This document shows positions 20,541 to 59,462 of a DNA stretch of 64,000 nucleotides, piece by piece (within the stretch, counting starts at the first letter, position 1; each line of letters starts with the position of its first letter). Where the stretch lies: contig CAWHCQ010000010.1 in assembly GCA_963827755.1 (NCBI GenBank), positions 1,999-65,998 of the forward strand, in the 5' to 3' direction. Made by a program: the position numbers and the translations under genes. The stretch is from an uncultured Gammaproteobacteria bacterium (GTDB taxonomy: Bacteria > Pseudomonadota > Gammaproteobacteria > UBA9214). The notes beneath the pieces are model-generated. The model was not told where the DNA came from. It did no database searches and was given only the letters and a program-made list of their open reading frames with translations.

Positions 20541-20825
20541 ATGAGCCGTATCGTGAATTGTGTCGTCCTCAAGCGCGAAGCCGAAGGGCTGGAATCCGTC
20601 CCGCACCCGGGATCACTGGGTGAGCGCATCTACGAGAATGTTTCCGCGGAAGGCTGGAACAAGTGGCTGGAGCGCCTGACCATGATCATCAATGAGAATG
20701 GCCTGAATACCGGCGACAAACAAAGCGTGGAGCTGATCGAAAAGCACATGGTTGGCTTTCTGTTTGGCGAAGGCGATTTCGGCTCGGTCCCGGAAGGCTT
20801 CAAACCCCCGGGCGCCAAGAAGTGA
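20541..20825 (+). CDS. yggX: oxidative damage protection protein (Fe(2+)-trafficking, YggX family)
   Basis: Start at ATG 20541 after GAGGA. MSRIVNCVVLKREAEGL...GWNKWLERLTMIINE. The stop TGA lies in the first heptamer of element E1. Confidence 0.85.
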   Translation: MSRIVNCVVLKREAEGLESVPHPGSLGERIYENVSAEGWNKWLERLTMIINENGLNTGDKQSVELIEKHMVGFLFGEGDFGSVPEGFKPPGAKK

Positions 20826-21012
20826 GAAGTGAGAAGTGAAAGTGAAGAAGTGAAGAGTAAAGAGTGATTTGTAGCGAAAGCCGGACGTCCGTTCACTTCT
20901 CACTTCTCACTTCTCACTTCTCACTTCTCACTTCTCACTTCTCACTTCTCACTTCTCACTTCTCACTTCTCACTTCTCACTTCTCACTTCTCACTTCTCA
21001 CCTCTAACTTCT
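20822..21012. repeat. heptamer-hairpin element E1: degenerate (GTGAGAA)-type arm, spacer, 15 perfect + 2 degenerate TCACTTC units
   Basis: Left arm 20822-20867. Spacer contains the palindrome CGGACGTCCG (20882-20891). Perfect TCACTTC x15 at 20893-20997, then TCACCTC and TAACTTC. Confidence 0.95.
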
Positions 21013-22391
21013 ATTTTCAGCAGTGGCGCTACCACGATGTTCAGCGCCTGGTGCGCTGCACGCAGGGCCGCCTCGGCCTGTTCTGCCGTCGGCGCGCAGG
21101 CAAACATAAAGCCCAGGTAACTGCTGCCCTCCGGCAGTGGCACCAGTTCATAGCCTTCACGAATATTAATCAGGATCTCTTTTACAAACGGCACGGCTCG
21201 CGCCGCTGTAATCCCTTCCACACGCCGCATAATGCCGGCCTCGGCAATCGGAATCATCAGCACCCCTGCGGCACCGGTCTGCGCCTGCATTTCCAGTGGT
21301 TTCCCGGTCGCATGCGCAATCACCAGCGACTCGAGACTGTGTCCGGTGCCGTAGCTGAGCAGGCGGGCACATTCGCCGCCAATGGTGCGGCTGGCGACTT
21401 CAAGGACGATGCAGCCCTCATTTGATAATCGCAGCTCGGCATGCACCGGCCCCTCGCCCAGGCCAAGCGCCCTGCAGGCGGCTGTTACGCAGCTGACAAT
21501 TTTTTCCTGCCAGGCCTCGCTGTGGCGCGAGGGCGTAATGTAATAGGTTTCTTCAAAAAACGGCCCGTCCATTGGATCGGGCTTGTCAAAAATCGCCAGC
21601 ACCTTGAGGCTGCCCCCGCTTAACAAGCCTTCCAGCGCCACCTCGGGTCCCGCTACAAAGCGCTCGACCAGTACATGCGATGCCACAAATTCATCATCCT
21701 GGTCCTCGCCGGCGAGTATGTGCTGTATCCGTGCACAGGCGGCCAGCAACTGTTTCTGTGTATCAGCGCGGATTACCCCGCGACTGGCGGAAAGCGACAG
21801 GGGCTTTACCACGCAGGGAAATACCAGCCCTTCGAGCTGCGGCCCGAGCGGCCCGGCAAGGTTTACAAGGCGAAATTCCGGGACGCCGACCCCGGCCCTG
21901 GCCAGCACTTCGCGGGACAGGTCCTTGCGGTGTGAATAACGTGCGGCTTCGACGGGGTTATGCGGCAGTTCCAGTGCCGCTGCGATGCGACTCCCCAGCT
22001 CAACGGTTGTATCGTCAGTCGCCAGAACACCGCAGAAAGGACGTTGCCGGTTTGCGGCCAGCAACACGTCAACAGCAGCCGGATCAGACAGGTCCACGTG
22101 CAGGCCGCCGGCAAGTTCCCCGACCAGTGAGAATTTTCCCTCGGAGGCCACCAGTACATCCACCCCGTGGAGCCGTGCCGCCTCGAGAAACGCGGCTGTT
22201 CGATAACTGCCGGGGGGCGCGATCAGCAACAGGCGCGGAGTTGTTTGCACCGTTGTGGCCGTATTCTGAAAAGTCCCGAAAGCGTGCAAGGCGTGGTGTA
22301 TATCGACTGGAAGATCTGCCCAGTCAGACTGGATACGTGAACCGCGTTTTTTACTGCAGCCTGAACTAACAGCGATGCGGCACCCGGACAA
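20991..22391 (-). CDS. ATP-grasp domain-containing protein (substrate unknown); start uncertain
   Basis: ATP-grasp core: [73 protein letters not shown]. An in-frame GTG near 22250 ([14 protein letters not shown]) is a possible alternative start. The C-terminal ...EVRGEK and stop are encoded by E1. Confidence 0.7.
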
Positions 22392-22476
22392 GGAAACGGC
22401 TTGCAGACCAACGCCTGCAAGCCGCTAACCCTTATACACAGTTTGTGTTCGCCAGCTGCGCGCGGGCTGCCGCCTG

Positions 22477-22884
22477 TCAGGCGCAACCGCCGCCGGCAGA
22501 ACCGCAGGCACCACAGGTGCCGGAGCCACCGGTCATGGAAAATGCATTATTGAAGACGAAACTGGCACCGGTCGGGCGCTCCACGTAGTCGATTTCAACG
22601 CCGCGCAAGTAATTCATCGCCACCGCATCGACAAAAAGATCGAAACCTTCTTCCTTGCGCACGCAGTCATACTCATTCTGCGAATCCGTAAATGTCATGC
22701 CATAACCCATGCCGCCACAACCGCCGCCTGACACAAATACGCGGATGGCCTTGAGATCCTCATCTTCCGCCTGCTTGATCAGTTCGCTCATTTTCTCGCG
22801 CGCGGCGGCCGTCAACGCCAGAGTCGATTCCGCCAGCTCCACACTGAAACCGCCTGTTGCTAATGACTGTGCTGCCTGTGACAT
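22477..22884 (-). CDS. HesB/IscA family iron-sulfur cluster assembly accessory protein
   Basis: 135 aa; IRVFVSGGGCGGMGYGMTF; Cys/Gly-rich C-terminus GSGTCGACGSAGGGCA. Confidence 0.8.
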   Translation of the reverse strand: MSQAAQSLATGGFSVELAESTLALTAAAREKMSELIKQAEDEDLKAIRVFVSGGGCGGMGYGMTFTDSQNEYDCVRKEEGFDLFVDAVAMNYLRGVEIDYVERPTGASFVFNNAFSMTGGSGTCGACGSAGGGCA

Positions 22885-23101
22885 ATCAAGCTCCGTTATT
22901 TGCCTGCTTAAAAAGAAGAATATCAGTTAGATACAATATAATCGCTGGAACCGATCCATGCCAGCCTCCCTGAATGGGTGGTCACTCAAGCGCCGTTCGA
23001 CACCCGCCGGTCAGCTCCATATTTGCAATCAAAACAGTCACCTGTCTGATCCAGACACCCCAGGGCAAGGCGCCGCGTTCGTATATGAACCAATTGTTAA
23101 T

Positions 23102-23120
23102 GATAATGATTTGTATTTAC
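23102..23120 (+). promoter_or_regulatory. candidate Fur box upstream of the porin/FMN-binding/PepSY locus
   Basis: GATAATGATTTGTATTTAC matches 13 of 19 positions of the consensus GATAATGATAATCATTATC (the first 9 match exactly). It lies in an AT-rich region ~55 nt upstream of ATG 23175. Confidence 0.35.
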
Positions 23121-23174
23121 TTTAATATTCCGTAGAATATTAGCAAATGTTCATAAACACACACGGAGTTACCC

Positions 23175-24491
23175 ATGAAACGCGCAACCCCATTGCTGGC
23201 CTTGTTGCTCCTGCCGCTGGTCTCGGCCAGCCTGTTTGCCGACGAGGCGCCCGCCACGCCCACGCTCGAGCAACTCTGGGACATCATCCAGGCACAACAG
23301 GCAGAGATTGAACGCCCTTAAAAAGAAACAGGCGGCCACCGCTGCAACGGCCTCGGCCGCCGATGAAAAGGCCGAGGCGGCCGTCGTTGCCGTGGAGGAA
23401 TCCGCCACCCTATACCGCGAGCGCCGGGAGCTGGGCCGAGCGCACAACCATTGGTGGCTATGGTGAAATGCATTACAACAATATCGATGCAGACGATTCT
23501 TCCAGGGACCAGAAGGAAATCGACTTTCACCGCTTCGTACTGTTTTTCGGTCACGAGTTTACAGACGATCTGCGTTTCTTCTCCGAACTCGAGGTTGAAC
23601 ATGCACTCACCAAGGACAATGTCTGTGATTTTACAGTACCGGCGGGCGGTCTCGCTCCCGGTGATGAGATATGCGATGGAGCATCCAATCCCGGTGAAGT
23701 GGAAGTGGAGCAGGCCTATATTGAGTTCGACATCAATGATCAACTCAGCACAAAGGGTGGCATTTTCATCCTGCCGGTCGGCATCATGAACGAGACCCAT
23801 GAACCGAACACCTTCTATGGTGTTGAACGTAATGATGTCGAAAATATCATCATACCTGCCACATGGTGGGCAGGCGGTGCCGCGATCAGCGGACACCATG
23901 CCAACGGTATCAGTTGGGATCTCGCCATCCATGAAGGGCTGAAGATGCCAACGACCGGCGGCAGTGCATTTCGGGTGCGCAGTGGCCGCCAAAAGACCTC
24001 GGAAGCACTCGCCGACAAGCTGGCATATACCGGTCGCGTGAGATACACCGGTGTCGCGGGCCTTGAAGTCGGTGCTTCCGTCAACTACCAGACCGATCCT
24101 TCACAATCAGGCAGTGACGGTCTCGATGACGGTATTCTGTACGAGACCCATGTGGCCTATCAGAAAGGACCCTTTGCCTTGCGTGCGCTGTACGCGGAGT
24201 GGGATTTCGACGGTTCAGCCGTTAAGGCCGCGAAAGCCGATGACCAGAGCGGCTGGTATCTTGGAACCCAGCTTCAAGCCGCGCGATGATGTTGGTTTGT
24301 ATGCCCGTTACGAGGATATCGACGCCGCCCGCTCCCGTGACAAGTTCGACCAGTGGGAAGTTGGTATAAATTTCTGGCCACACGAGGATGTCGTCCTGAA
24401 AGCGGACTACCGCAGCCGTGATCATGACCTGGCGGCCGAATCCGGCAGGGATTTCGATGCTTTTGATCTGGGCATTGGCTACCAGTTTTAA
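23175..24491 (+). pseudogene. outer-membrane porin, at least three +1 frameshifts
   Basis: Signal peptide MKRATPLLALLLLPLVSASLFA from ATG 23175 after ACGGAG. The frame breaks at CCC 23315-23317 and again near 23400. The body is in ORF 23363..24289 (WAERTTIGGYGEMHYNN...). The last break is at CTTGGAACC (~24260), with the C-terminus in ORF 24051..24491 ending FDLGIGYQF. Confidence 0.65.
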
Positions 24492-24529
24492 AATACAGCC
24501 AACAGTTTGTTCTGTTACTTTGTATCTCA

Positions 24530-25060
24530 ATGATCACCCGGGCATGCCTGTTACTAATCACCTCGCTGCTGGCCGGACATGCGCTGGCCGGCAGCATCTA
24601 CCAGTCGCCGGAAAAATTCCTCGACGAAGTATTTGACGGTAACCCGCCGACGCCTGCCGTACTCTGGTTACAGGGAGATATCAGGGAAAACGCAAAGGAG
24701 ATTCTCGGACACCGTTACCCGGGACTGCGGCTACGCTACTGGTTAAAGGACAACAGAACAGCATGGATACTCGAGGAAATCGGCAAGGACAAGCCCATCA
24801 CGGTGGGACTGGTTGTCAAGGACAATACACTGGAGCTCATCAGGGTGCTCATCTTCCGGGAAAGCCGTGGATGGGAGGTACGTTACCCCTTCTTCACCGA
24901 CCAGTTCGAGGGCGCGGGACTGGCCGATAATCACAAGCTCGACCGGCATATTGACGGCATCTCGGGCGCGACCCTGTCTGTTCGCGCACTGAAAAAGCTG
25001 GCGCGCCTGGCACTCTACCTGCACAGAAGGACAATCGTCTCCGATGACCCGGCGCAATAA
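24530..25060 (+). CDS. FMN-binding domain-containing periplasmic protein
   Basis: 176 aa; signal peptide; HIDGISGATLSVRA FMN_bind motif. Confidence 0.65.
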   Translation: MITRACLLLITSLLAGHALAGSIYQSPEKFLDEVFDGNPPTPAVLWLQGDIRENAKEILGHRYPGLRLRYWLKDNRTAWILEEIGKDKPITVGLVVKDNTLELIRVLIFRESRGWEVRYPFFTDQFEGAGLADNHKLDRHIDGISGATLSVRALKKLARLALYLHRRTIVSDDPAQ

Positions 25061-25827
25061 AAACCGCATCAAGTTGTTGCGTTCACTGTACGTATGGCAC
25101 CGCTATATGGGGCTTACGGCTTCACTGTTTGTCGTCATGCTGACAATCACCGGCCTGGCGCTTGAACCACACTGAAGAACTGGGACTGGACTCCAGCAGT
25201 GTCCGCTCCGATACCCTGCTCGACTGGTATGGCATTCATGCGCCTGACATAAAGAACAGCTACCGGGCAGGTGCACACCGTGTCACTGAGGTCGGTGAAA
25301 ACCTGTACTGGGATACGCTGAAAATCCCCGGGCGTGGCAGCACCACTCATCGGCGCCGTTGAATATTCAGACCTCATCGTCATCGGCATCGATGGACCAG
25401 TTGCTGTTATTCACAACAGGAAGGAGAACTGATCGAACAGCTGGATAGTGCAACCGGGGTACCTTCCGGCATGCAGGCAATCGGGCTGACGGCGGATGGA
25501 AACCTGGCAATCAGGGCGGCGCAGGGTTATTACCGGACCAATGCCGATTTTATCGAGTGGCATCAAACCGAAAGCCTTGCTGCCACATGGGCACGCAGCG
25601 AAAAGCCGTCCCTGCAGTTTGAACAGGCATTAAAGACAAGCTGGCGCGGCACTGGTCTACCGCTGGAACGCGTCATGCTGGACCTGCATAGCGGCCGTAT
25701 CCTCGGCAGCTGGGGTGTCTACCTGGTGGATGCAGCCGCCGTCCTGTTCCTGATGCTGGCAGGCAGCGGCGTCTGGTTATGGGGCAAACGCCGCGCCAGC
25801 TGCCCGCCAGCACCGGGCGTAAAGTAA
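25044..25827 (+). pseudogene. PepSY-associated TM helix protein, about three frameshifts
   Basis: MTRRNKNRIKLLRSLYVWHRYMGLTASLFVVMLTITGLAL from ATG 25044. It continues in ORF 25162..25362 (NHTEELGLDSS...), then a third frame (GVAAPLIGAVEYSDLIVIGIDG), then ORF 25471..25827 (...LDLHSGRILGSWGVYLVDAAAVLFLMLAGSGVWLW). Confidence 0.6.
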
Positions 25828-25972
25828 AAAGTGAGAAGTAAAATGTAGTAGAGTTCCAGCGCAAAGCTGAACACCATCACTCTCACCTCTCACGTCTCAC
25901 TTCTCACTTCTCACTTCTCACTTCTCACTTCCCTTCACTTCTCACTTCTCACTTCTCACTTCTCACTTCTCC
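25819..25972. repeat. heptamer-hairpin element E2
   Basis: Short left arm GTAAAGTAAAAAGTGAGAAGTAAAATG. Right arm of ~12 TCACTTC-type units (25876-25972), with two perfect runs of 4. Confidence 0.9.
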
Positions 25973-26533
25973 AGCTTGGTAAATTTCGAGCCTTCAAGGT
26001 TCAGATTGAACATCAGCCCCTTGTTGCTGAATACAAACCCGACAATCGGGTCTTTAATATCGATCGTGTTGATGTCTTCACCAACACCCCATTCGACCAG
26101 CGCCACCGAGCCATCCACACCCGCCTTCCAGCCTTTGCTGCTGCGGAAATCCGCCAGCGCACTCACTGCTCATGAATACCACCACTATCGACTTGGATTG
26201 CGCGCCGACCTGGAAGCCGAGCGAGGCTGCCGCCGTGCTGTAGTAATCCACCGTCTTGCCACCCACACGCAGGGCACCTTCACCGTATTCACCGCCAAGC
26301 ACGAAACCGGCCTTGAGCACGGTCGGAAATACCAGCACCCCCCCGGCACGCTTCAGGAACTCGGAACCGCCTTTTATTTTTTGCTTGAACTCCTTGATTG
26401 TTTCATCAACCTCGATTTCTATCTCCATCGCTGACTTTGCATACGCGCTGCTCGTGACAGCAAGACCCAGCACCAGCAACAACGAGGCACACCAGCTACC
26501 CGCCTTGCCGCAATTTCTGCCAATTAGTTGCAT
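25963..26533 (-). pseudogene. SYLF (Ysc84/DUF500) lipid-binding domain lipoprotein, one frameshift
   Basis: Start at ATG 26533 after GGAGAAAGGA (MQLIGRNCGKAGSWCASLLLVLGLAV...). GGVLVFPTVLKAGFVLGGEYGEGAL is in ORF 26078..26656. The C-terminal half is in ORF 25963..26166 (WKAGVDGSVALVEWG...GLMFNLNLEGSKF). The stop is inside E2. Confidence 0.6.
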
Positions 26534-26943
26534 TTCCTTTCTCCTCTGGTTGACTCCGGAATTCTGCGCCATAAACCCTGTATAACCGCCGCAACACCCA
26601 AATAAAAATTCGTTTAACCCAAAAGGGGGCTTGATCATGGTGAAAAACACTGTCACGCTTTATCAGCGAAGCTGCAATCATAACAGGCTCTGTCGGTATA
26701 TTTACCGGGATTGCACTAAAACCCTTACACATTACCAGCGTCGATATGCCACTGCTGCGGGGATGATCACCCGCAGATTTTCTGCATTTCGGGGCCGCGC
26801 ACCTGCTTCTTTGCATTGCCATCACCGGGCGTCGCATGCTGAAACACACGGAGTCCCGACGACGTTCTGAACTTGCCAATGACATCCAGCCGGCTACTCA
26901 TCCACCGGAAAACGTCCCGGCGTATGCGAAGACCGCGGCAGGG

Positions 26944-29208
26944 CTAGTTACCGGCCCGCACCAGGCCGCCCAGGCCGCCCTGTTCGAGCACATTATTGTA
27001 AAGTTCGCGGATGGCAGCAGGTTCTTCCAGCAACAGGGCCTGCTGCAGCAATTCCACCGTTTCTGACTTCTTGAAGCTGCGAATCACCCATTTCACGCGT
27101 GGCAGGCTGCTGGCACTCATACTCAAACTGTCCACGCCCAGCCCCATCAGCGCCAGCACGGCTGCCGGGTCACCCGCCATTTCTCCACAGACACTGACAG
27201 GTTTACCGAGTTTGTGTGCTTCCCTGACGATGAGCTTGATCGCGTGCAACAATGCAGGATGCAAGGTCTGGTAGAGGTAGGCAACACGTGAATTATTCCG
27301 GTCAACCGCCAGCAGATACTGGGTGAGATCATTGGTACCGATTGAAAAGAAGTCGACCCGTCGTGCCATGGCGGCAATCTGGTAGACCGCCGAAGGCACC
27401 TCGATCATGATGCCTAACGGCGGGCGATAGACATCCTCACCCTCCTCCAGCAGCTCATCATAGGCCTGCCTGATCAATACCCGCGCCTTGTCCAGCTCCG
27501 ATACCGAGGAAATCATCGGCAACAGGATGGTGAGATTGTTCAGACCAACACTGGCACGCAACATGGCGCGCAATTGGGTCAGAAACAATTCCGGGTGGTC
27601 GAGTGAAATTCGTATACCCCGCCAGCCAAGGAACGGGTTTTCCTCCACCACCGGAAAATACGGGAGCATCTTGTCACCGCCGACATCAAGTGTTCGCAGG
27701 GTGACCGGGTTCGGTGCATAGGCCTCCAGCGACTTGCGATAAATCCGCATTTGTTCTTCTTCAGTGGGAAACCGGTCTCTTATGAGGAACGGAATCTCGG
27801 TACGATACAGGCCGACACCATCGCACCTGTTATGAACCACGGACTCTACGCCGGAAACCAGGCCGGTATTCAGATACAGCGGGATGTAGACCCCGTCCGG
27901 CGTTTCCGAGGGCTTGTCCGCCTCGTGCCGCAACACCTCGGAGAGCACGTTCTCCTCTGCCTGCAAGCGCAGATATTCCTTGCGTATCAGTGCAGATGGG
28001 TTGACGAACACATCACCGCGGTAGCCATCGGCTATCATCGACTGCCCTTCCAGGCGGGCGACAGGAAGGTCGAGTGCCCCCATCACGGCGGGAATACCCA
28101 TGGCCTGCGCCAGGATGGCCACGTGCGACGAACTTGAACCCGTGACCGAAACAATGCCGGCCAGCATTTCCAGCGGAACTTCCGCCAGTTGCCCGGCACT
28201 GATTTCCTCGCCAACCAGCACCGTCTTCGAGTAGGCCATACGGCTTAGCGGCTGTTCATCCTGCAAGTGTGTCAGAATCCTGCGACCCAGATCATTAATA
28301 TCACTGGCGCGTTCACGCAGGTAAGAATCTTCCATGGACTCGAATACCTGCACGTGTTTCGCTATGGTCTTGCGCAAGGCACCCGGCGCCCAGTTACCTG
28401 CGCGAATCAGCTCCTTCGTTTCGCCGACAAGACTGTCGCCCCCCAGCATCAACAGCAGGGCATCAAACAATGCAAGCTCTTCCGCGGGCAAGACGGCGGA
28501 CATGCGATTGGCATAGTCACTGATATCATCCTGAACCGCGGCTACTGCTTCATCGAGACTGTTTATCTCGGCTTCTATATTCTCGATCTTGCGGTCCGGA
28601 ATGGCATCCAGGTTCGCAGGCGGGTAAACAACCATCGCCTGGCCAATGGCCACACCGGATGCACCGGGCAGGCCCTTCAGTGAAAGAGAAACCTCCTCCG
28701 CAGCATCCAGTACACTGGTGATTTCTCCACTGGCACCGGCATGGGTAATGGCGCCGGCCAGTTGCGCGGCCAGCGTCACCAGGAAGGCCTCTTCCTCGTC
28801 GCCAAACTTGCGCATCTCGCGCTGCCTGACAACCAGCACGCCCAGCACCACGCCGTGCTGAATAATAGGAACACCGAGAAAACCATGATAGGGCTTCTCA
28901 CCGGTATCATGGACAAACCGATAGCGTGGATGGCTCGGGGCATCACGGATATTCACGGGTTCTTCACGCTCGCCCACCATGCCGACAAGGCCTTCAGTCT
29001 TTTTTAAGCGCACCTTGCCGATGGCATTCTTGCGATAGCCTTCGGTTGCTCGCAGCACAAACTCATCATGCTCGGCATCAAAAAGGTAAACGGACGCCAC
29101 ATCCACGTCCACCGCCTCACGTACACGCCGGACAATAATATCCAGGGCCTGTCCAAGGTCAGGCGCAGTGTTTACTTCCTGGACAATACGACGCAAGGTC
29201 TCCAGCAT
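26944..29208 (-). CDS. ptsP: phosphoenolpyruvate-protein phosphotransferase PtsP (EI-Ntr) with N-terminal GAF domain
   Basis: 754 aa; GAF N-terminus; GSSSSHVAILA phospho-His region; C-terminal PEP-utilising domain FFSIGTNDLTQY. Confidence 0.9.
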   Translation of the reverse strand: MLETLRRIVQEVNTAPDLGQALDIIVRRVREAVDVDVASVYLFDAEHDEFVLRATEGYRKNAIGKVRLKKTEGLVGMVGEREEPVNIRDAPSHPRYRFVHDTGEKPYHGFLGVPIIQHGVVLGVLVVRQREMRKFGDEEEAFLVTLAAQLAGAITHAGASGEITSVLDAAEEVSLSLKGLPGASGVAIGQAMVVYPPANLDAIPDRKIENIEAEINSLDEAVAAVQDDISDYANRMSAVLPAEELALFDALLLMLGGDSLVGETKELIRAGNWAPGALRKTIAKHVQVFESMEDSYLRERASDINDLGRRILTHLQDEQPLSRMAYSKTVLVGEEISAGQLAEVPLEMLAGIVSVTGSSSSHVAILAQAMGIPAVMGALDLPVARLEGQSMIADGYRGDVFVNPSALIRKEYLRLQAEENVLSEVLRHEADKPSETPDGVYIPLYLNTGLVSGVESVVHNRCDGVGLYRTEIPFLIRDRFPTEEEQMRIYRKSLEAYAPNPVTLRTLDVGGDKMLPYFPVVEENPFLGWRGIRISLDHPELFLTQLRAMLRASVGLNNLTILLPMISSVSELDKARVLIRQAYDELLEEGEDVYRPPLGIMIEVPSAVYQIAAMARRVDFFSIGTNDLTQYLLAVDRNNSRVAYLYQTLHPALLHAIKLIVREAHKLGKPVSVCGEMAGDPAAVLALMGLGVDSLSMSASSLPRVKWVIRSFKKSETVELLQQALLLEEPAAIRELYNNVLEQGGLGGLVRAGN

Positions 29209-29296
29209 GGGAATGGTTCCAGTAATTAACGGTTAGAAAGTCTGTTCCGGCTATTGACTGGCAGTCAGTCAGCCCAACCCGGAAACAAAATACCGG

Positions 29297-29800
29297 CTAT
29301 GTTCTTTTCAATCCGGCAGGTATGCCATCCGGGAACAGCAGCGGCGCCAGTTCATTCAGCGCCCGCCGGTAAACATTGCGTTTGAATGAAACAACTTCCT
29401 TGAGAGGGTGCCAGTAGTCCACCCAGCACCAGTAATCGAATTCCGGCTTGTCCGACTGATCGAGTGTTACCGCCTGATCTTCACAGAGAATGCGCAGCAG
29501 AAACCAGACCTGCTTCTGACCGATGCACAGTGGCCGGCTTGTACGCCGCAGGTATTGCCGCGGCAGGTGGTAGCGCAGCCAGCCGCGGGTTGAACCGATC
29601 AGCTCGACCTGCTCCGGCTGCAGACCGACCTCTTCGGCCAGCTCCCGGTACATGGCCTCGCTCGGCGTCTCGTTCGAACGCATACCGCCCTGCGGAAACT
29701 GCCAGGCATCCTGGCCGATGCGCCGGGCCCACAAGAGCCGCCCCTGCGGGTTCGACAGGATAATCCCGACATTTGGCCTAAATCCATCTGGATCAATCAC
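29297..29800 (-). CDS. rppH: RNA pyrophosphohydrolase
   Basis: 167 aa; [15 protein letters not shown]; Nudix box [23 protein letters not shown]. It lies immediately upstream of ptsP. Confidence 0.9.
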
Positions 29801-29903
29801 TTGTATACCCTATAGTGCATTTCCGGACTGAAATCATTCTCCCATAGCTCACAGGCCGGGGCAACCGTGGGCCCGGCAGTCGGCGCTTGCCGCGCCTCCA
29901 ATC

Positions 29904-35724: not shown

Positions 35725-36297
35725 ATGGGCAACCGGCTCTCAAAGATATACACGCGCACCGGCGATGACGGCACCACCGGCCTTGGTGACGGTTCACGCG
35801 TTGCCAAGGACGATCCGCGAGTCGAGGCCATGGGTGCGGTTGACGAACTGAACTGCGCCATCGGGGTCCTGCTTGCCCATGAACTGCCGGTAGCTGTCCA
35901 GCTTTCACTGACCGGCATCCAGCACAGGCTGTTTGATCTCGGCGGCGAACTCTGCATCCCCGATACCAGCTGCATCACGGATGAACACGTTGCAGGGCTG
36001 GAACAGTTACTCGATGAACTCAATGCAGACCTGCCGGCCCTGAAGGAATTCATCCTGCCGGGCGGCTCCGCGGCCGCGGCGGCCTGCCACCTGGCCCGTG
36101 CCATCTGCCGTCGCGCCGAACGGCGTACCCACAGCCTCGGCAAGCAGGCAGGCATCAACCCGGCTTCCCTGAAATACCTGAACCGGCTCTCCGACCTGCT
36201 GTTTGTGATGGCCCGGCACCTGAACAAACAGGCCGGTGTAGCCGATGTTTTCTGGAAGCATGAAAAGAAAGGTGAGAGAGTGAGAAGTGAGAAGTGA
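35725..36297 (+). CDS. PduO-type ATP:cob(I)alamin adenosyltransferase
   Basis: 190 aa; IYTRTGDDGTTGL, DPRVEAMGAVDELN, FILPGGS. The last residues GERVRSEK and the stop are encoded by element E3. Confidence 0.85.
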   Translation: MGNRLSKIYTRTGDDGTTGLGDGSRVAKDDPRVEAMGAVDELNCAIGVLLAHELPVAVQLSLTGIQHRLFDLGGELCIPDTSCITDEHVAGLEQLLDELNADLPALKEFILPGGSAAAAACHLARAICRRAERRTHSLGKQAGINPASLKYLNRLSDLLFVMARHLNKQAGVADVFWKHEKKGERVRSEK

Positions 36298-36489
36298 AGA
36301 GTGAAGAAGTGAAGGTGAAGAATACGGAAGAAGTGAAAAGTAAGATGCTTAAGAATGATTTTCGTGTACTTCACGTGGATTCCGTGGCTATTACTACTTC
36401 ACTCTTCACTTCTTACTTCTCACTCTTCACTTCTCTTCACTTCTCACTTCTCACTTCTCACTTCTCACTTCTCACTTCTCACTTTCTCA
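36272..36489. repeat. heptamer-hairpin element E3 with a half core (TTTTCGTGTACTTCACGTGGATTCCGTGGCTAT, 36359-36391)
   Basis: Left arm 36272-36322 (GTGAGAG/GTGAGAA/GTGAAGA units). Right arm 36393-36489, ending in 5 near-perfect TCACTTC units. Confidence 0.93.
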
Positions 36490-38469: not shown

Positions 38470-38560
38470 GTAGGAGCGCCTTGCAGGCGCGATTGGTTGT
38501 CTAGTCTATCGCCCGCAGGGCGAAACAAAGCCAATCGAGGATCAGATCCGCTCCTGCAGG
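38470..38560. repeat. cluster of REP-like palindromes (GTAGGAGC class)
   Basis: GTAGGAGCGCCTTGCAGGCGCGAT (38470-38493), ATCGCCCGCAGGGCGA, and an inverted head CCGCTCCTGCA. Confidence 0.6.
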
Positions 38561-41525: not shown

Positions 41526-41684
41526 GGTGAGAAGTGAGAAGTGAAAGTGAAAAGTGAAAAGTGAGGAGTGAAAGTGAAGAAGCGGGGTGAAGTTGGCTGT
41601 TACGTCGATAGCGAACCACTCATCTATTCTCACTTCTTCACTTCTCACTTCTCACTTCTCACCTCTCACTTCTCACTTCTCACT
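41526..41684. repeat. heptamer-hairpin element E4 (no GTGGATTCCGTGG core)
   Basis: Left arm 41526-41592 (GTGAGAA x2, then GTGAAAG/GTGAAAA/GTGAGGA variants). Spacer 41593-41626. Right arm 41627-41684. Confidence 0.93.
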
Positions 41685-49668: not shown

Positions 49669-49677
49669 AACACTGTC

Positions 49678-49826
49678 AGAAGTCCTGAGAAGTGAGAAGT
49701 AAGCAAGTACACAGCCAGGTGACTGTTTCTGAATGTAATGGCCACGGAATCCACGGATGCACACTTAAAACTAAAGTCATTAACTGACTTTTCACTTCTC
49801 ACTTCTTCACTTCTGACTTCCGTGGC
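49678..49826. repeat. heptamer-hairpin element E5 (short arms) with a half core ATGGCCACGGAATCCACGGATG (49739-49760)
   Basis: Left arm CAGAAGTCCTGAGAAGTGAGAAGTAAGCAAG. Right arm TTTCACTTCTCACTTCTTCACTTCTGACTTCCGTGG. Confidence 0.85.
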
Positions 49827-51079: not shown

Positions 51080-51153
51080 GTCAGCCGGGGAAAGAGTTAC
51101 TCGAAATTACACACATGCTGTTTCGACTGCACCTGCCGTAAGAGGTTGGCTGT

Positions 51154-52677
51154 CTAGCTACTCTGGGTAACGCGCAATACTTCCTCAACCGAGGTGATTC
51201 CCTGCAATACCTTGCGCCAGCCATCCTCGCGCATACCGGGTGAATCTTCACGCGCAACCCGTTCCATTGCCTGCTCACCATCACCGTCATGGATCATCGT
51301 GCGCAGGGTCTCGCTCACTTCAACCAGCTCGTAGATACCGGTTCGCCCGCGGTAACCAAGCTGCTTGCAGTGGGCACATCCGCGGACACGATAAAGGACA
51401 GGCGCTGCATCTTCCGCAACCCCCAGCATCCGGCACTCATTCTCGCCGGCCGTGTAGGGTTCCTTGCAGTCGTTACACAAAACCCGCACCAGCCGTTGCG
51501 CCAGTACCCCGATCAGGCTGGAGGATAAAAGAAAGGGCTCCACGCCCATATCACGCAACCGGGTTACCGCACCGACTGCACTATTGGTATGCAGGGTGGA
51601 AAAAACCAGGTGGCCGGTCAGACTGGCCTGTACGGAGATCTCCGCAGTCTCCAGGTCACGGATCTCGCCGACCATCACCACATCCGGGTCCTGACGGAGG
51701 ATGGCACGCAGGCCACGTGCAAAGTCCAGGTTAACCTTGGTATTGACCTGCGTCTGCCCGATCCCGTCAAGGTAATACTCGATCGGGTCTTCAACCGTCA
51801 TGATATTACGGCTCTTGTTGTTAAGACGCCCGAGCGCGGCATACAGGGTCGTGGTCTTGCCCGACCCGGTCGGGCCGGTTACCAGGATAATGCCGTGTGG
51901 CCTTTGAATAAGACTGTCGATCACATCTCTTGTGTGCGCGGCCATTCCCAGACTCTCGAGATCGAGGCGGCCGGCCTGTTTATCGAGCAGGCGCATCACC
52001 ACGCGCTCACCGTTACCGGATGGCAGTGTCGAGACACGCACATCGACCGCCCGCCCGGCGACCCGCAGCGAGATACGGCCATCCTGCGGCAGGCGCTTCT
52101 CGGCGATATCCAGGCGCGCCATGACCTTGATGCGTGACACCAGTAATGGCGCAAGCACCCGTTGCGGCTCCAGCACCTCGCGCAGCACACCATCACAGCG
52201 GAAACGTACGACCAGGCGGTTCTCGAAGGGCTCGATATGGATATCCGAGGCATTTTCCTTTACCGCCTCGGTAAGCAGTGCATTAATCAGGCGAATGATC
52301 GGCGCATCGTCTTCGCTTTCCAGCAGATCTTCCGGCTCGGGCAGATGCTCGGCGATATCCATCAGATCCATCTCGTCACCCAGGTCATCCATCATCTGCA
52401 TGGCTTCGCTGGAATCCTGCTCATAGGTATTGGCAAGCAGCGTCTCGAACCTGTCCCTGTCGACGAGCGTGAGTGACAACGGCTGCCCCATAAAGCGGCG
52501 CAGCTCGGACAGCGCAGCCGGGGCTATACTGGAACAATGCAGCACCAGGGCCTTGCCATCCTGTTCGCCTGTGACCAGCAAGCCGTGCCGCTTGGCAAAC
52601 ATGAATGGCGGGCGACGTAACCCGGCAGATACTTCGGTGTTGATTTCCCCGGCGGATTGAAGCGGCGTTTCAGACAT
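51154..52677 (-). CDS. gspE: type II secretion system ATPase GspE
   Basis: 507 aa; Walker [11 protein letters not shown]; Asp box; tetracysteine CNDC...CAHC. Confidence 0.92.
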
Positions 52678-52680
52678 CCC

Positions 52681-54668
52681 TTACTCGATGATGACCATCG
52701 AATCCAGGGCGTCGGACGGAAGCGTCACCGAAGTCGATGTCATATCACCCAGCGGGGGTAATACCGGGTGCTTCTCGCTCGGCAACAGGTTAATGCCGTC
52801 ATCGTCCGCCCCCTGTTGCAAGGTCCGAATGTGGTTGTATTTGGTATTCGTATAAAACCTGGACATGGTGGCATCACGCAGGATAACGGGATGTATAAAT
52901 ACCATCAGGTTGGTCCGGGTGACATCGGCTGTCCTCGAGGTAAACAATTCACCAATGTACGGAACATAACCCAGCAAGGGCACCCTCTGAATATCCTCAC
53001 CGACCGTTTCTTCAATCAATCCACCGAGCACCACCATATCTGAATCATCAACCATCACGGTCGTCTTGATGGAGCGTTTGTTGGTAACGATATCGGAGGC
53101 ACCCGCCACGCTCGGGGCGATGCTGGAGACTTCCTGCTCGATCTCGAGCCGCATCGCATCGCCTTCATTGATTTGCGGCTTGATCTTCAGCGTCAGGCCA
53201 ACATCCTGGCGCTGTATGGTCTGGAACGGGTTGGTGGCACTGTCACCTGCCCCGGTACTGGTAAACGAGCCTGTGAGAAAGGGGACATTCTCACCAATAA
53301 TGATCTCGGCCTCCTCGTTGTCCAGGGTAACCAGTGTCGGCGTAGAGAGGATATTGTTATTGGTATCCGATGCAATCGCATTGAGCACACCAATATAGTT
53401 AAAACTGTTGCTGTTGGTCCGCCCGAAGCCAAGCAGGGCATTATCGACGATTGCAGGGAAAAGCACCGCCCGTCCGCAACGCTGGCCGCACCGTTGACGA
53501 TATCCGATATCAGGCTGCCGCTGTTGGTGAAGTTGATCAACCCGACCGGGCCGCTGGAATCCTGCGCACCGTTGAATATCCACTGCACCCCCAGCTCACG
53601 CGCGGTGTCTTCGGTCACCTCCGCGATAATTGCCTCTACCAGTACCTGGGCCCGACGAATATCAAGCTGGCTTATGACGCGTCTGAGCGTGCGCATGATA
53701 TCCGGTGGCGCGGTAATCACCAGTGCATTGGTGGCTTCATCGGCCTGGATATCAAAGGAGTTGCGGCTGGCGGACGCCTTGCCCTGCTGCGCCCCGCGCT
53801 CCTCGAGCTTGCCGACGCCCATCAGGGTGCCTACAAGATCTGCGGCCACGGCGTAATGAAGGTAGACGACGTCCGTGTTGCCACCACTATCCAGCGGTGT
53901 ATCCAGGTGCGAGATCAGCGCCCGCATTCTCAGCCGCGTAGCGCGGTCACCGCCCAGCAGCACGCTGTTGGTACGCTCATCTGCAACCAGCACCTGTCCA
54001 CCCGCAGCGGCACCGGGTGACTTGGCCTTTACCCCCGCAACACGATTAAGACTGGTCAGCACGCGGACAACTTCAGTGGCCGATGCGTGCTGCAGCGGGA
54101 TGATCTCGATTTCACTGTCGCTGACCTGATCGATTCGACGAATAATACTGACAAGGCGCTCTACGTTCCTCGCGCGGTCGGAAATGATCAGTACGTTGGT
54201 TGCCGGGTAAGCCGCCAGGTGTCCCTGCTGTGGTATCAGTGGCCGTAATATCGGCACCAGCTGGGCCGCGGTGACATTATCAACCTGTACCACACGGGTA
54301 ACCATTTCATCACCCTGGCCCGGACTCCTGTCAGTTACCGTCGGAATACCATCCTGCTTTGCATTCACGTCCGGTACGATCTTGATGACCTCGCCACTCG
54401 GTACGGCGGCAAATCCATGTACCTTCAGGATAGACAGAAAGACCTGGTAGACCTCTTCACTGTTCATTGGCCGCGACGAGATCACCGTCACCTTGCCCTT
54501 GACCCGCGGATCAACGATAAAATTCCTGTCCGTCACCGCCGAGACCGTACTGATAAGCGCACCGATATCGGCATCATTCAGATTCAGGGTGACAGTCTCT
54601 GCATGCAGTGGCAGCGACAAAACCAGCCAGGCCAACAGCAGCCATATATTTTTTAACTGTAACTTCAT
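52681..54668 (-). pseudogene. gspD: type II secretion system secretin GspD, one frameshift
   Basis: N-domains are in ORF 53193..54680 (ATG 54668: MKLQLKNIWLLLAWLVLSLPLHA...). The secretin domain is in ORF 52681..53583 (...STPTLVTLDNEEAEIIIGENVPF...). The frames join at GACGGGCGGTGC (plus-strand CCC 53469-53471); one extra G would restore ...VADGAVLFPAIV... Confidence 0.85.
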
Positions 54669-54765
54669 TACGTGTCCCACAACCGTCGTCGCGCTCCGTT
54701 TTACATCCCTATCAGTCTTTATATCGTTAGCTTGAAGGTACTGCTTGAGTAAATCAAATATATCA

Positions 54766-55665
54766 CTACTCGGGCATCCTGAAGCTCATCACCTGTTCCT
54801 GCCCGTTCCGCAATATGGTCATACTGGCGGTGTCGCCACTCTGGATGCTCTTCAGGGCCTGCAAGCCACTCTCGGTGCTATCGAGCCTGACGTCATTGAT
54901 CTGTACGGCCACGTCACCTGCCTGCAGGCCCAGCCCCTTGAACAATTCCGGCTCCCGACCGGGCCGCAATGTATACCCGATCAGCACGTTTCCATCAGCC
55001 CTGTATGGCATGGGCCGTACGACCTCGAGCAGGGTCCTCGGGTTCTTTCTTATATTCTGGCGAATTTCCCTGATCCGCTGTTCATGCCTTGCTGCAAGTT
55101 TTTTTCCGGGTGCCCTTGTTACCGCTGCACGTTTTGACGGGTCGTCCAGCACCAGCCGCAGGGTCTCGAAGCGACCATTACGCTTGAGGATTACCCTGTC
55201 CGGGTAAACCTCGCTTAACTCGGCATTACCGGGCAGCATATCGCCAACCGCATACTGCTCTTCCTTGCCCCGCGGGTCGGCAATAATCGCCCGCGCCTTG
55301 CCGGATTTTTCAGAGGCAAAAACGCCGTGCAAGACCAGCTTGAGTCGTGTATCCGGCGCATCGATCGGCGTATCGACAACCACGGGAGCCTGTTTCTGCG
55401 CCACCACCCCCATCAAGTGCCAGCCCGGCAGCTGGCGTATCAGCTGCGCATTCGGATCAACGGCAACCGGCAAGAGACTGACCTCGATATTTTCGGCCTC
55501 ACCGCCGGCTGGCGGGCCTGCCAGGTTCCAGGTCAACGCGGCCAGCAAGCTTGCAATCCACACCACCAGCAACAGGTTGATTACCAGGATCAACCATCTT
55601 GTATTCCTGCCCTGGAGCAGGCGGAAGACATCTGCCTGTTGTAATGAAAGTACGCTCATCGGCAC
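54766..55665 (-). CDS. gspC: type II secretion system protein GspC (PDZ domain)
   Basis: 299 aa; N-terminal TM WLILVINLLLVVWIASLLAALTW; C-terminal PDZ-like GLQAGDVAVQINDVRL. It lies directly upstream of gspD. Confidence 0.75.
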   Translation of the reverse strand: MPMSVLSLQQADVFRLLQGRNTRWLILVINLLLVVWIASLLAALTWNLAGPPAGGEAENIEVSLLPVAVDPNAQLIRQLPGWHLMGVVAQKQAPVVVDTPIDAPDTRLKLVLHGVFASEKSGKARAIIADPRGKEEQYAVGDMLPGNAELSEVYPDRVILKRNGRFETLRLVLDDPSKRAAVTRAPGKKLAARHEQRIREIRQNIRKNPRTLLEVVRPMPYRADGNVLIGYTLRPGREPELFKGLGLQAGDVAVQINDVRLDSTESGLQALKSIQSGDTASMTILRNGQEQVMSFRMPE

Positions 55666-55692
55666 CCTTTATACATAAATCAACTGCGTCCG

Positions 55693-56982
55693 TTATCGCT
55701 GGTTTGCCCTGCGCCGGTTGCCACTGCTTCTGTTCGCCGGACGTTTCCCGGACTTGCCCGGACCACCTCCGGGGCGTGGCTTGCGCACGATCCTGACCGG
55801 GGGTTTAAGCTTCGCAAGACGATCTTCCCGCACGATTTCAACGGGAATCTTGTGGCCGATAAAGGCCTCGATTTCAGGCAGCGAATAGACAAAACCCTCA
55901 CAGGCAAAACTTACGGCATCACCATCCTTGCCGACACGTGCCGTACGACCGATTCGGTGCACGTAATCCTCGGCATCCTGCGGCAAATCATAATTGAACA
56001 CATGACTGACGTCGGGAATATGCAGGCCGCGTGCCGCAACGTCTGTTGCAATCAGTACAGGCAATTTGCCATCCTGGAATTCTTTCAACAAACGCTGGCG
56101 TTTTGTCTGCGGGACGTCACCTGAAAGCACGGCACACTTGAAGCCGTTGCCTTCCAGATAGGACCATACCCTTTCCGCATTACGCTTGGTGTTTACGAAA
56201 ACAATGCTGCGCAGGGGGTCCATGTGTTGCAGCAAACCGACAAGCAGCGGGATCTTTTCTTCATTGGCAGTGTGATAGACCACCTGCCTTACCAGGTCTG
56301 CAGTGACCTTTTCGGGTTCCACATCGATGTGCACCGGGTTATTCATGTGTTCGTAGGCCAGCTCCTGCACTCGATGCGAGAGGGTCGCGGAGAACAGCAG
56401 ACCAAGACGTTTTTCAGGGGGTGGGCAACGCCGTATCAGATAACGAATGTCATTGATAAAGCCCAGGTCAAACATCCGGTCGGCCTCGTCCAGCACAATG
56501 GCCTGCGCCATTTTCAGGTCATATACGTGCTGTTTGAAATAATCGATCAACCGGCCCGGCGTGCCGATCAGGATATCGACACCGGCCGAGATCGTGTCAC
56601 GCTGTTGTTCGTAGCCGGTACCGCCATAGGCAAGGCCAAGCCGCAAACCGGTGTGCCGGCCAATGAGCGTGGCATCGGTATGAATCTGGATGGCCAGTTC
56701 ACGCGTCGGCGCCAGCATCAGCGCCCGGGGCTGGCTCTTGCTGCGCCGACTATCTGCCGGATGGGTCATCAAATGGTTATAGACGGCCAGCAGGAATGCC
56801 ACCGTCTTGCCGGTGCCGGTCTGCGCCTGGCCGGCGACATCACGCCCGCTGAGCGCCACCGGCAGCGTCTGTGCCTGAATCGGGGTACACATTGAAAATC
56901 CTGCATCTTCAATGCCTTGCATCAGTTTTTCAGGTAAGGAAAAGCTCGAAAAGGGGGTATCGCTTAAATGTGCATCAGACAT
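55693..56982 (-). CDS. rhlB: ATP-dependent RNA helicase RhlB
   Basis: 429 aa; Q motif; [23 protein letters not shown]; Arg-rich tail. Divergent from trxA-rho as in E. coli. Confidence 0.88.
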
Positions 56983-57461
56983 AATTTATTTACACCGGGC
57001 CCGTTAGCGGGGTCATTTTTGGCAGGATTTCATATTATATTTCAAACGCTTGCTAATATGCCACGTTTGTTTTCAGGATGGCCCGCCTGCCCCGGCTATA
57101 GACGCCTGCAAACAGACGGCGGTGAGTGCAAAAAATTGCGGCCTGCATACCTGGAAACACCAGCCCGGGTTATGGACCCTGCAGGCGTGCATGCTGTTGG
57201 CAAAGGATACAGAAAATATTCACGACAGGCTTGTAATATGAACAGATTTAGGCTGAAATACACACATAGAGAAAACGCGTGCAATTGACAGCGTGCACCG
57301 AGATATCAATCAGCCCGTCATGGCTGGACGTTTCCGTTTACAAGAATCACAACACGCCGCATAGCGGTATCCCATTCTGTACGAACATCGTGAACATGGC
57401 ATGTTCCGGCTTCCACCGAATGTATGCAGCGTAACCATTTCAACACAGGAGAATACCTACA

Positions 57462-57788
57462 GTGAGTGAACACATTATCTATGTGACTGATGATACATTT
57501 GAAGCAGAAGTCATAAACTCCCCCGACCCTGTACTGGTCGATTACTGGGCTGAATGGTGTGGACCCTGCAAGATGATCGCTCCAATCCTGGATGAAATCG
57601 CAAGTGAATATAACGGCAAGGTGCGCATCGCCAAGCTGAATATCGACGACAACCCGCAAACACCGCCCAAGTACGGAATCCGTGGAATCCCGACGCTGAT
57701 GCTGTTCAAAGGCGGCAATGTCGAGGCCACCAAGGTAGGCGCACTTTCCAAGTCACAGCTCACCGCATTCATCGACAGCAACATCTGA
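57462..57788 (+). CDS. trxA: thioredoxin
   Basis: 108 aa; GTG start after [15 protein letters not shown]. Confidence 0.95.
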
Positions 57789-57946
57789 CTGAAATGATTG
57801 CTACGAAATCCAACTGCAAGAAAACTACATGACAAACAGAATATACCGGGACAGCTGCACAGCCAGCTAACCCGGCGTTAGCACACATCCCACCGGCCTG
57901 ACAGGCCACTTCAACTATTCACAATGACACATATCAAAGGCTACTT

Positions 57947-59204
57947 ATGAACCTGTCCGAACTTAAACTGAAACCGGCTGCCGAGCTGGTTGAAATAGCA
58001 CAACAAATGGGCGCAGAGGGTACCGCGCGCTCCAGAAAACAGGACATCATCTTTTCCATCCTCAAATCGCATGCAAAAAAAGGCGAGGATATTTTCGGCA
58101 GCGGTGTTCTGGAAATACTGCAGGACGGGTTCGGTTTCCTGCGTTCTGCAGACAGCTCCTACCTCGCGGGCCCGGATGATATTTACGTATCTCCAAGCCA
58201 GATCAGGCGTTTCAGCCTGCGTACCGGCGATACCGTGGATGGAAAGATACGGCCGCCGAAGGACAGTGAACGTTACTTTGCATTGCTCAAGGTCGATGCA
58301 ATCAACTACGAGAAACCTGAAAACGCCAAGAACAAGGTTGCCTTTGAAAACCTGACGCCGCTCCACCCCAATAAAAGACTGGTACTGGAACGCGGCAACG
58401 GCAGCACCGAAGACATTACCGCTCGCATCATTGACCTGGTCGCACCCGTGGGCACTGGGGCAACGCGGCCTGATCGTGTCGCCGCCCAAGGCCGGTAAAA
58501 CCATGCTGCTGCAGAATATCGCACAATCAATCGCATCGAATTACCCGGACGTGTACCTGATTGTGCTGCTGATCGACGAGCGTCCCGAGGAAGTCACCGA
58601 GATGTCGCGCTCGGTAAAGGGCGAAGTGGTGTCCAGCACCTTTGACGAACCGGCAAGCCGGCATGTACAGGTCGCCGAAATGGTCATCGAGAAGGCGCGC
58701 CGCCTGGTAGAACACAAGCACGACGTCGTCATCCTGCTCGACTCCATCACCCGTCTCGGCCGCGCCTACAATACCGTCGTACCTTCATCCGGCAAGGTAC
58801 TGACCGGCGGTGTCGACGCCAATGCGCTGCAACGCCCGAAACGCTTCTTCGGCGCCGCACGCAACGTCGAGGAAGGCGGCAGCCTGACCATCCTGGCAAC
58901 CGCGCTGGTCGACACCGGTTCGCGCATGGATGACGTCATCTACGAGGAGTTCAAGGGTACCGGCAACCACGAGATCCACCTGGAGCGCAGGATCGCCGAA
59001 AAACGCGTCTATCCCGCGATCAACCTCAACCGCTCCGGCACCCGCCGCGAAGAGCTGCTGACCGACCCGAAAGAGCTGCAGAAGATGTGGATACTGCGCA
59101 AGCTGCTGCACCCGATGGACGAGCTGGCCGCCATGGAATTCCTGCTCGACAAGCTGAAATCAACCAAGAGCAATGCACAGTTCTTTGAATCGATGAAGCG
59201 GTGA
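57947..59204 (+). pseudogene. rho: transcription termination factor Rho, split by a single +1 frameshift in a G4 run (probably a sequencing artefact)
   Basis: ORF 57947..58498 holds the N-terminal and RNA-binding domains ([15 protein letters not shown]...DLVAPVGTG). ORF 58431..59204 holds [22 protein letters not shown] and the rest of the ATPase. Removing one G from GGGG 58457-58460 gives an uninterrupted APVGTGQRGLIV. Confidence 0.9.
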
Positions 59205-59462
59205 GAGCGGTGAAGTAGCGTGAGAGTGAAGTGAGAAGTGAGAAGTGAAAAGTGAAGAGTGAAGAGTGAGAAGTTAAGAGTAATGAGCGACGGTCCAGTA
59301 ATAATCAGGCTCCCTAATGCCCGGTTTAATTTTTCGTGTTCTTCCGTGGATTCCGTGGCCATTAAGGTTTTATCTCTCCCTACTCGTACTTCTCAGCTTA
59401 TTCACTCTTCACCCTTATCACTTCACCTTTCACTCTCACTCCTACTTCTCACTTCTCACTTC
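59200..59462. repeat. heptamer-hairpin element E6 with a half core TTTTCGTGTTCTTCCGTGGATTCCGTGGCCAT (59331-59362)
   Basis: Left arm 59200-59287 (12-13 GTGAGAA-type units, 2 perfect). Right arm ~59380-59462 (degenerate, 2 perfect units). Confidence 0.93.

Follow-up and report, generated by a model that had tools for sequence, protein, structure and literature searches.

Why should one kind of inverted repeat fill space after space between converging genes? The question is raised by a 64,000-nucleotide stretch of DNA from an uncultured gammaproteobacterium of the UBA9214 lineage (GenBank assembly GCA_963827755.1, contig CAWHCQ010000010.1, positions 1,999 to 65,998), here called the window, in which eight elements (E1-E8; Table 1) follow a single plan: GTGAGAA-type units form a first, purine-rich arm, TTCTCAC units form a second one, and 25-140 nt of central sequence separate the two. 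Both arms are built of tandemly repeated 7-mers, span 20-130 nt and vary in their number of units, and the GTGAGAA-type units are often degenerate (GTGAAGA, GTGAAA). With at most one mismatch allowed, (GTGAGAA)2 occurs 56 times in the window, compared to 0.02 expected from shuffled sequence. The initial annotation of this DNA had noticed that the elements prefer convergent gene ends and look the same to polymerases arriving from both sides, and had proposed a bidirectional terminator or, alternatively, a neutral safe-harbour preference of insertion. Its positional preference and symmetry hold, and its terminator reading finds no apparent support in the sequence. What governs the placement is the stop codon: GTGAGAA is read on the sense strand of the adjoining gene and the array starts at the stop of that gene, and the far side of the element meets either another 3′ end (convergent junction) or, further off, a 5′ end (tandem junction), almost never lying in a divergent spacer. 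We regard the elements as hairpin microsatellites, either selfish or neutral, which 3′ ends tolerate and which are then locked in, a reading to which we give about an even chance of being right.

Arrays start at the stop codon in sense orientation

Elements of the window were located with Tandem Repeats Finder (TRF) and by direct reading of the sequence. The genome assembly (2.85 Mb in 52 contigs, 57% GC; the window lies on contig C10) was scanned with a detector of GTGA[AG][AG] chains, which replaced strict detectors that missed degenerate arms. A self-trained codon-likelihood picker of open reading frames (ORFs) served as gene caller, and Pfam was applied to the flanking genes; as the assembly contains many frameshifts, only gene ends and orientations were used. 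For comparison across phyla, one genome per species was scanned for exact (GTGAGAA)4, and the array was found at no fewer than 118 loci in Acidobacteriota, Gemmatimonadota, Bacteroidota, Planctomycetota, Verrucomicrobiota, Gammaproteobacteria, Desulfobacterota and Clostridia. ORFs of these loci were called with codon models pooled by GC content, and all cross-phylum counts given below hold among the matches listed.

The gene end that an arm faces is a 3′ end in 24 of 29 cases in this genome and in 100 of 127 cross-phylum cases (p=5e-11), the share being 81-93% when restricted to high-scoring flanking genes or to low-GC loci. Single arms behave likewise: in 45/50 the outer side borders a 3′ end. 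The distance is as telling as the orientation: once extended through variant heptamers, the 7-periodic tract starts at most 4 nt after the stop codon, or contains it, in 66 of 93 arms (median 0), and arms facing a 5′ end lie at a median of 44 nt from the start codon. The stop is either the TGA of unit 1, 2 or 3 (distance -4, -11 or -18) or located 0-4 nt ahead of the first unit, in the latter case typically as TAGAA-, TGAA- or TAAGAA-GTGAGAA. Stops inside the arm fall in unit 1, 2 and 3 in 23, 7 and 8 cases (p=0.002). Retained native stops are enriched in TAG (20/56 vs. a background of 21%, p=0.013), which is usually followed by AA and then by GTGAGAA. Since (GTGAGAA)n contains TGA in all three frames, an arm can replace the native stop along with the last few codons, the price being a short -(VRS)EK tail.

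This replacement can be followed at single genes by comparison with congeners (in the following ends a hyphen precedes the stop). yggX ends in AAGAAG-TAG in congeners without the element and in AAGAAG-TGAGAAG... with it; ilvD changes at the same position from GAG-TAA or GAG-TGA to GAG-TGAGAAG..., and rho from CGC-TAA or CGC-TGA to CGG-TGAGAG.... The adenosyltransferase at E3 has the tail GERVRSEK here and VRSEK in the closest relative (G012), carries no extension in a third species (G001), and in congeners without the element ends at the native stop. On the other side of E1 and E3, the C-terminus of the ATP-grasp protein is about 6 residues longer in congeners, and the periplasmic binding protein (Peripla_BP_2) is here 3-4 residues shorter. 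At E1, E4 and E6 comparison with empty sites revealed no target duplication; the whole spacer is replaced.

The polarity of the two arms is equally constant. The earlier statement that the GTGAGAA arm always comes first is borne out, with 10 arm pairs of the genome in that order and 0 reversed, and it generalises across phyla, where a partner arm (the opposite arm within 300 nt) is found inward of the array, as expected, 38 times and once on the wrong side; from either strand the element reads 5′-GUGAGAA arm...UUCUCAC arm-3′. About two thirds of the cross-phylum arrays have no partner arm within 300 nt, hence no hairpin. Arms are paired about as often at convergent junctions (12/33) as at tandem ones (12/37), which makes the hairpin a property of the element rather than of two gene-end arrays meeting, and the idea of two independent gene-end arrays that chance to meet was rejected as the whole story. 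At tandem junctions of this genome, the arm adjoining the 3′ end is the long one.

Convergent junctions and the contribution of anchoring

Our own gene calls in the window give 10 convergent, 9 divergent and 39 tandem junctions. The initial annotation had likewise counted ten convergent junctions, and its inventory of them proved accurate: six carry E1 to E6, one has a canonical bidirectional terminator (17423-17455; A8-stem-T5), one a cluster of REP-like (repetitive extragenic palindromic) palindromes (38470-38560), and two (2949-3020 and 11681-11690) hold nothing notable. Pfam confirmed the genes flanking E1 to E6, in this order, as Iron_traffic (yggX)/ATP-grasp, PepSY_TM/short ORF, Cob_adeno_trans/Peripla_BP_2, SH3_3/ILVD, Metallophos/T2SSF and rho-type ATPase/Peptidase_M48. 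Occupancy is thus 6/10 for convergent and 2/48 for other junctions (Fisher p=1.3e-4), E7 and E8, as well as a ninth element just beyond the window, being located at tandem junctions.

The genome holds about 22 elements, including two with variant units, and junction types assigned after reading each element site were 10 convergent, 11 tandem and 1 divergent. Convergent junctions make up 14.6% of all junctions and 18% of intergenic bases, and the genome-wide enrichment on which the initial annotation had staked its proposal is present against both intergenic length (p=0.003) and junction counts (p=5e-4). Nine of the elements lie within one 45-kb stretch of C10 (window coordinates 20.8-64.8 kb); that this clustering is an artefact of assembly or a mis-binned contig was considered and rejected, since none of the contigs stops at an array and C10 is unremarkable in its tetranucleotide profile. 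Across phyla, 75 junctions comprised 33 convergent, 37 tandem and 5 divergent, the convergent count exceeding a null of about 17.5% (p=9e-8) and the divergent count falling below a null of 21% (p=7e-4); in this genome the divergent depletion amounts to 1/22. That sole divergent element (C18:12395-12523) has an 18-unit TTCTCAC arm that stops about 30 nt short of a plus-strand gene's start codon; the promoter of that gene must therefore be in or beyond the array.

How much of the convergent excess is left once anchoring is allowed for? An element anchored to a random 3′ end is expected at a convergent junction with a share of 2C/(2C+T) (C, convergent; T, tandem), which is 29-34%. Observed shares are 44% among the loci listed (p=0.03), 45% in the genome (p=0.08) and 75% in the window (p=0.02), so that most of the excess over the naive null of 15-18% is due to 3′-end anchoring. 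The convergent excess would then be mostly a by-product of where the arrays start, and a smaller part may come from the far side of the element avoiding promoter and 5′ regions, a constraint shared with REPs of Escherichia coli.

Tolerated repeat, terminator or homing module

In the reading we prefer, that of a tolerated hairpin microsatellite, arrays would persist because 3′ ends tolerate them, and some would by now provide the stop codon. As TGA recurs in all three frames, slippage or deletion across the native stop would be harmless, and arrays could end flush with a coding sequence or inside it. Several observations weigh against this reading. A modest residual convergent excess is left after 3′ anchoring has been allowed for, and in this genome the excess leans on the C10 cluster, the share elsewhere being 4/13 and not significant. 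Gene ends of the cross-phylum set come from a heuristic ORF caller rather than curated annotation. Elements are kept at the same junctions in three species (this genome, G012 and G001) with flanking genes of about 77-85% identity, and such retention could reflect selection. In congener G009 (C121, L128, about 1965-2093) the yggX/ATP-grasp junction has a hairpin of (GATACAA)n...(TTGTATC)m, a unit without stop codons; it starts at the TAG stop, and both of its arms carry the same changed unit. Tolerance through three-frame stops explains the flush placement, and not the total absence of reverse polarity away from genes.

The retention just described is also what would be expected if the elements were selected or exapted bidirectional 3′-end modules, which stop or stall polymerase or block 3′ exonucleases and so insulate converging genes, as some E. 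coli REPs do. In six of the ten convergent junctions of the window the element takes up the whole space between the two stops, and a canonical terminator occurs at only one of the others; the convergent excess beyond 3′ anchoring points in the same direction, and E. coli REP325 offers a precedent as both terminator and decay block. The stems are symmetric and very stable: RNA folding of the elements (about 43% GC) gave minimum free energies (MFE) of -25 to -109 kcal/mol with 31-95 pairs, and z-scores of about -8 to -14 in 6/8, weaker in E2 (-3.9) and E5 (-1.6). On the other hand, the features of an intrinsic terminator (a GC-rich stem of 5-20 bp, a loop of 3-8 nt, a U-tract and an upstream A-tract) are not those of the elements. 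Most of them have no U-tract, T5-6 being present only on the minus-strand sides of E4 and E8, where the T6 run does follow the hairpin. A terminator scan marked no element boundary as terminator-like, and yielded no more terminator-like sites in element regions than in shuffled sequence; its sole match within an element, in the central loop of E6, is a weak stem of 5 pairs. Further, the arms are grossly unequal (5 vs. 15 units), leaving long tails unpaired, most cross-phylum arrays, as noted, are single arms, and at the position of E8, between purH and purD, a strong terminator would shut off purD. In other species of the genus the same junctions are occupied by CACGGAA palindromes, a GC hairpin or other repeats, or consist of a spacer of 26 nt. 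A dedicated terminator role appears unsupported on these grounds, and we hold the 3′-end module to be rather unlikely, though worth keeping in mind. A hairpin of such size in a 3′ untranslated region (UTR) plausibly affects decay or is cleaved by RNase III, by analogy with the stems of 23S rRNA intervening sequences (IVSs); any such effect on mRNA 3′ ends, be it exonuclease block, RNase III cleavage or partial termination, would follow from the stability of the stem (up to -109 kcal/mol) and would not be the cause of its placement.

A different view takes the position at the stop codon as targeting instead of a survival filter, with arrays homing to stop codons or nucleating there, either by template switching at short unit matches (AAGAAGT, GAGTGA, GGTGA) or through an element-encoded protein. 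Arrays that begin exactly at the native stop of yggX, ilvD and rho, the preference for a stop in the first unit, native stops followed directly by a partial unit, and the excess of TAG among them are all consistent with this view, and by eye the centre of E1 seems to keep a displaced native GTAGCG with C-terminal codons. Against it, empty sites have weak microhomology, with 5/9 to 7/9 matches, suggestive at yggX and ilvD and about chance level at rho, and decayed units are indistinguishable from seeds; neither an enzyme nor a target duplication nor a fresh insertion was identified, and deletion bias together with three-frame-stop tolerance could produce flush arrays without any targeting. We therefore judge homing improbable. 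The opposite extreme is a purely neutral safe harbour, in which arrays land anywhere and survive where they spare promoters and coding sequence, without any particular tie to the stop codon. It accounts for the depletion of divergent junctions, for congeners gathering unrelated repeats at the same junctions, and for the mild convergent bias of REP-like GTAGGAGCG palindromes in this genome (17/61). As the alternative named by the initial annotation it comes closer than the terminator and yet is incomplete, since arms are not scattered but start at the stop (median distance 0) and in sense orientation (90% of single arms), and since CACGGAA modules of the same genome show no convergent excess when they are without heptamer arms (2/16). 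In this pure form we consider it very unlikely. The boldest version would combine several of these ideas: (GTGAGAA)n would have spread over at least eight phyla as a sense-strand module that homes to or nucleates at stop codons and converts the native stop into a three-frame TGA cassette, usually with a long 3′-UTR hairpin, possibly mobilised with PF05635 or GxxExxY cassettes and with a real effect at mRNA 3′ ends. This we regard as a long shot.

Elements, cargo and related systems

Within the tolerated-repeat reading, the element class would be a widespread and fast-changing repeat, here called hairpin microsatellite: a tandem (GTGAGAA)n array, usually with an inverted (TTCTCAC)m array behind it. 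Some copies enclose small cargo: a gene for a PF05635 "23S rRNA IVS protein" in other phyla, and in this genus nested CACGGAA palindromes related to a GxxExxY nuclease cassette. The eight copies of the window are listed in Table 1 together with these cassettes.

Table 1. Heptamer elements of the window and gene cassettes associated with arms or CACGGAA modules
Feature	Position or locus	Junction or setting	Arms and centre
E1	20822-21012	convergent, yggX(+)/ATP-grasp ligase(-)	F arm 20822-20855, degenerate GTGAGAA units; 25-nt centre; R arm 20893-21012
E2	25820-25971	convergent, PepSY_TM(+)/short frameshifted ORF(-)	degenerate F arm ~25820-25846; R arm 25877-25971
E3	36269-36489	convergent, cobalamin adenosyltransferase(+)/periplasmic binding protein(-)	F arm 36272-36320; R arm 36397-36489
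E4	41527-41684	convergent, SH3_3 protein(+)/ilvD(-)	F arm 41527-41592; 35-nt centre; R arm 41627-41684
E5	49685-49820	convergent, Metallophos(+)/type II secretion system (T2SS) protein F(-)	short F arm 49685-49702; R arm 49787-49820
E6	59197-59462	convergent, rho(+)/M48 peptidase(-)	F arm 59201-59281; degenerate R arm 59407-59462
E7	61220-61430	tandem, purD(-) stop/LemA(-) start	short F arm 61220-61246; R arm 61350-61430
E8	62727-62885	tandem, purH(-) stop/purD(-) start	F arm 62727-62768; R arm 62809-62885
PF05635 cassettes	L032, L033, L047, L077, L092	between arms	
PF13366 gene	C10:71400-71747 (-)	~5 kb past window end	
PF13366 gene	C18:23201-23542 (-)	between inverted CACGGAA modules	

In E1 (MFE -70/-80 kcal/mol) the TGA of yggX (20823-20825) lies within the first heptamer and the ATP-grasp stop (20991-20993) within the R arm, which consists of 15 perfect TTCTCAC units. 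The left stop of E2 (TAA, 25825-25827) falls within the degenerate arm and the right ORF ends at 25963 within the R arm. In E4 the left stop is 6 nt ahead of the arm and ilvD stops at the TGA of unit 1; in E6 rho likewise takes its stop (TGA, 59202-59204) from the first unit. E5 is the weakest copy, with an MFE of -36 kcal/mol and distances of 17 and about 45 nt from the two stops. In the tandem elements, the long R arm of E7 adjoins the purD stop (61422) with the short arm towards the LemA start (61206), and the R arm of E8 ends 3 nt ahead of the purH stop (62889) with the F arm 21 nt from the purD start (62705). A search of the window against Rfam gave no match to any element; the sole match was a cobalamin riboswitch (RF00174, 32627-32841 on the plus strand, 108 bits) near the genes flanking E3.

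The long perfect arm of the window elements is mostly the plus-strand TTCTCAC arm. The rho/M48 element of G012 (L139, G012:C178) carries instead a GTGAGAA arm of about 25 units, much longer than that of E6, so which arm expands is not fixed. A conserved central core was considered as a candidate and rejected: the centre of E4 recurs only in G012, on a possibly mis-joined short-read contig, and the other centres are unrelated. In congeners the corresponding spacers hold the repeats mentioned above, or the different heptamer hairpin of G009, and the E8 spacer (purH/purD) holds other palindromes. From these comparisons, such junctions appear to turn over their repeats fast. At the rho/M48 junction, G017:C8 (L144) has about 7 tandem copies of a unit of the GCGGCCTTGTAGTTCAGGAA type, approximately 21-23 nt long, with REP-like palindromes, and G010:C42 (L142) has in the same convergent spacer a CACGGAA-ended element of about 330 nt. 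Composite arrays were seen at L016, L023, L029, L031, L034, L035 and L069, where the gene-proximal units are a different heptamer (GTAAGAA, GATAAAA, GGCAGAA, GGCAAGA, GTGCCAA or GGACAGA) with an abrupt switch to GTGAGAA further in. Two paralogous membrane-protein genes of this genome (C40:10064-10143 and C41:11276-11446) both end inside TTCTCAC-type arms, one of them degenerate (TCACTTATCAC...); here the array seems to have been copied together with its gene.

A second repeat, TAATGGCCACGGAATCCACGGAAGAACACGGAAAAAT, the CACGGAA module, is found complete or as one half in the centres of E3, E5, E6 and E7; the genome has about 35 copies of it, often paired in inverted orientation. E7 holds the complete palindrome (61260-61345) and one half is found in each of E3 (about 36360-36395; MFE of the element -104 kcal/mol), E5 (about 49740-49765) and E6 (about 59330-59365). 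The module resembles a miniature transposable element with inverted repeats (MITE), and also comes in a gene-carrying form with PF13366 (PDDEXK_3, GxxExxY): two intact genes of this family lie inside CACGGAA-module elements of the genome. Another convergent element (C18:15174-15574) has arms enclosing about 340 bp of other repeats, namely two CTGTAGGAGCGGATCTAATCCGCGA palindromes and remnants of CACGGAA modules, showing that heptamer arms can wrap other repeat families. In other phyla, the ORF between arms 400-600 bp apart belongs to PF05635 in 5/5 loci, above the Pfam cut-off, in either orientation and in at least four phyla. The window elements carry no ORF, and no PF05635 gene was found in this genome. 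No parent transposase was identified for the heptamer elements, and none of the four Y1_Tnp genes of the genome (on C3, C11, C13 and C17) adjoins a heptamer array.

The elements have several known relatives in form. E. coli REPs are distributed approximately 60% convergent, 40% tandem and 1% divergent, and REP325 both terminates transcription and blocks decay (bioRxiv 10.64898/2026.03.23.713779). Like REPs and their composites (bacterial interspersed mosaic elements, BIMEs, or REPINs), the heptamer elements are extragenic and located at gene 3′ ends, with 44-45% convergent, 49-50% tandem and 5-7% divergent, and might have a context-dependent role as terminator or decay block. However, REPs are conserved palindromes of 20-40 bp that are tied to RAYT transposases, whereas the arrays described here are heptamer tracts of up to about 130 nt that are flush with stops and adjoin no Y1_Tnp gene. 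Other relatives are inverted (GGGAATC)n pairs in Xanthomonas, heptamer simple-sequence repeats (SSRs) that lie 28 nt from the upstream and 160 nt from the downstream ORF (Rehm et al., 2015; PMC4692102); only 16% of these arrays are between convergent ORFs, and the unit is G4-forming (PMC4692102). Both systems consist of intergenic heptamer arrays that face each other on opposite strands, nearer to the upstream ORF. The unit differs, and the passages of that paper retrieved by our search mention no stop-codon overlap, cross-phylum spread or cargo genes. 23S rRNA IVSs with an S23p/PF05635 ORF are flanked by inverted repeats in Coxiella and Leptospira (PMC4990558), which recalls the GTGAGAA/TTCTCAC arms around PF05635 genes in other phyla, though the copies of the window are without a gene and lie between protein genes rather than in rRNA. 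Bidirectional intrinsic terminators share the convergent setting and the symmetric hairpin, and differ in their short GC-rich stem and flanking A/U tracts, which are missing here. Inverted heptamer arrays are already known from Xanthomonas, and the junction bias is known from REPs. A full-text literature search found no description of GTGAGAA/TTCTCAC heptamer arrays, and in the literature searched there was no quantified cross-phylum rule of sense-strand stop-codon anchoring, nor a breakdown of the convergent excess.

What began as a local curiosity becomes a general and testable rule, that of sense-orientation anchoring to stop codons from Bacteroidota to Gammaproteobacteria, from which the pile-up at convergent junctions follows. 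It also calls for caution, as a hairpin between convergent genes is not to be equated with a terminator without transcript data. Simple-sequence repeats can rewrite protein C-termini and take over whole convergent spacers, and the arrays are linked to the poorly understood cassettes of PF05635 (IVS protein) and GxxExxY. If these hairpins do shape 3′ ends, they would represent a functional analogue of REPs in many phyla.

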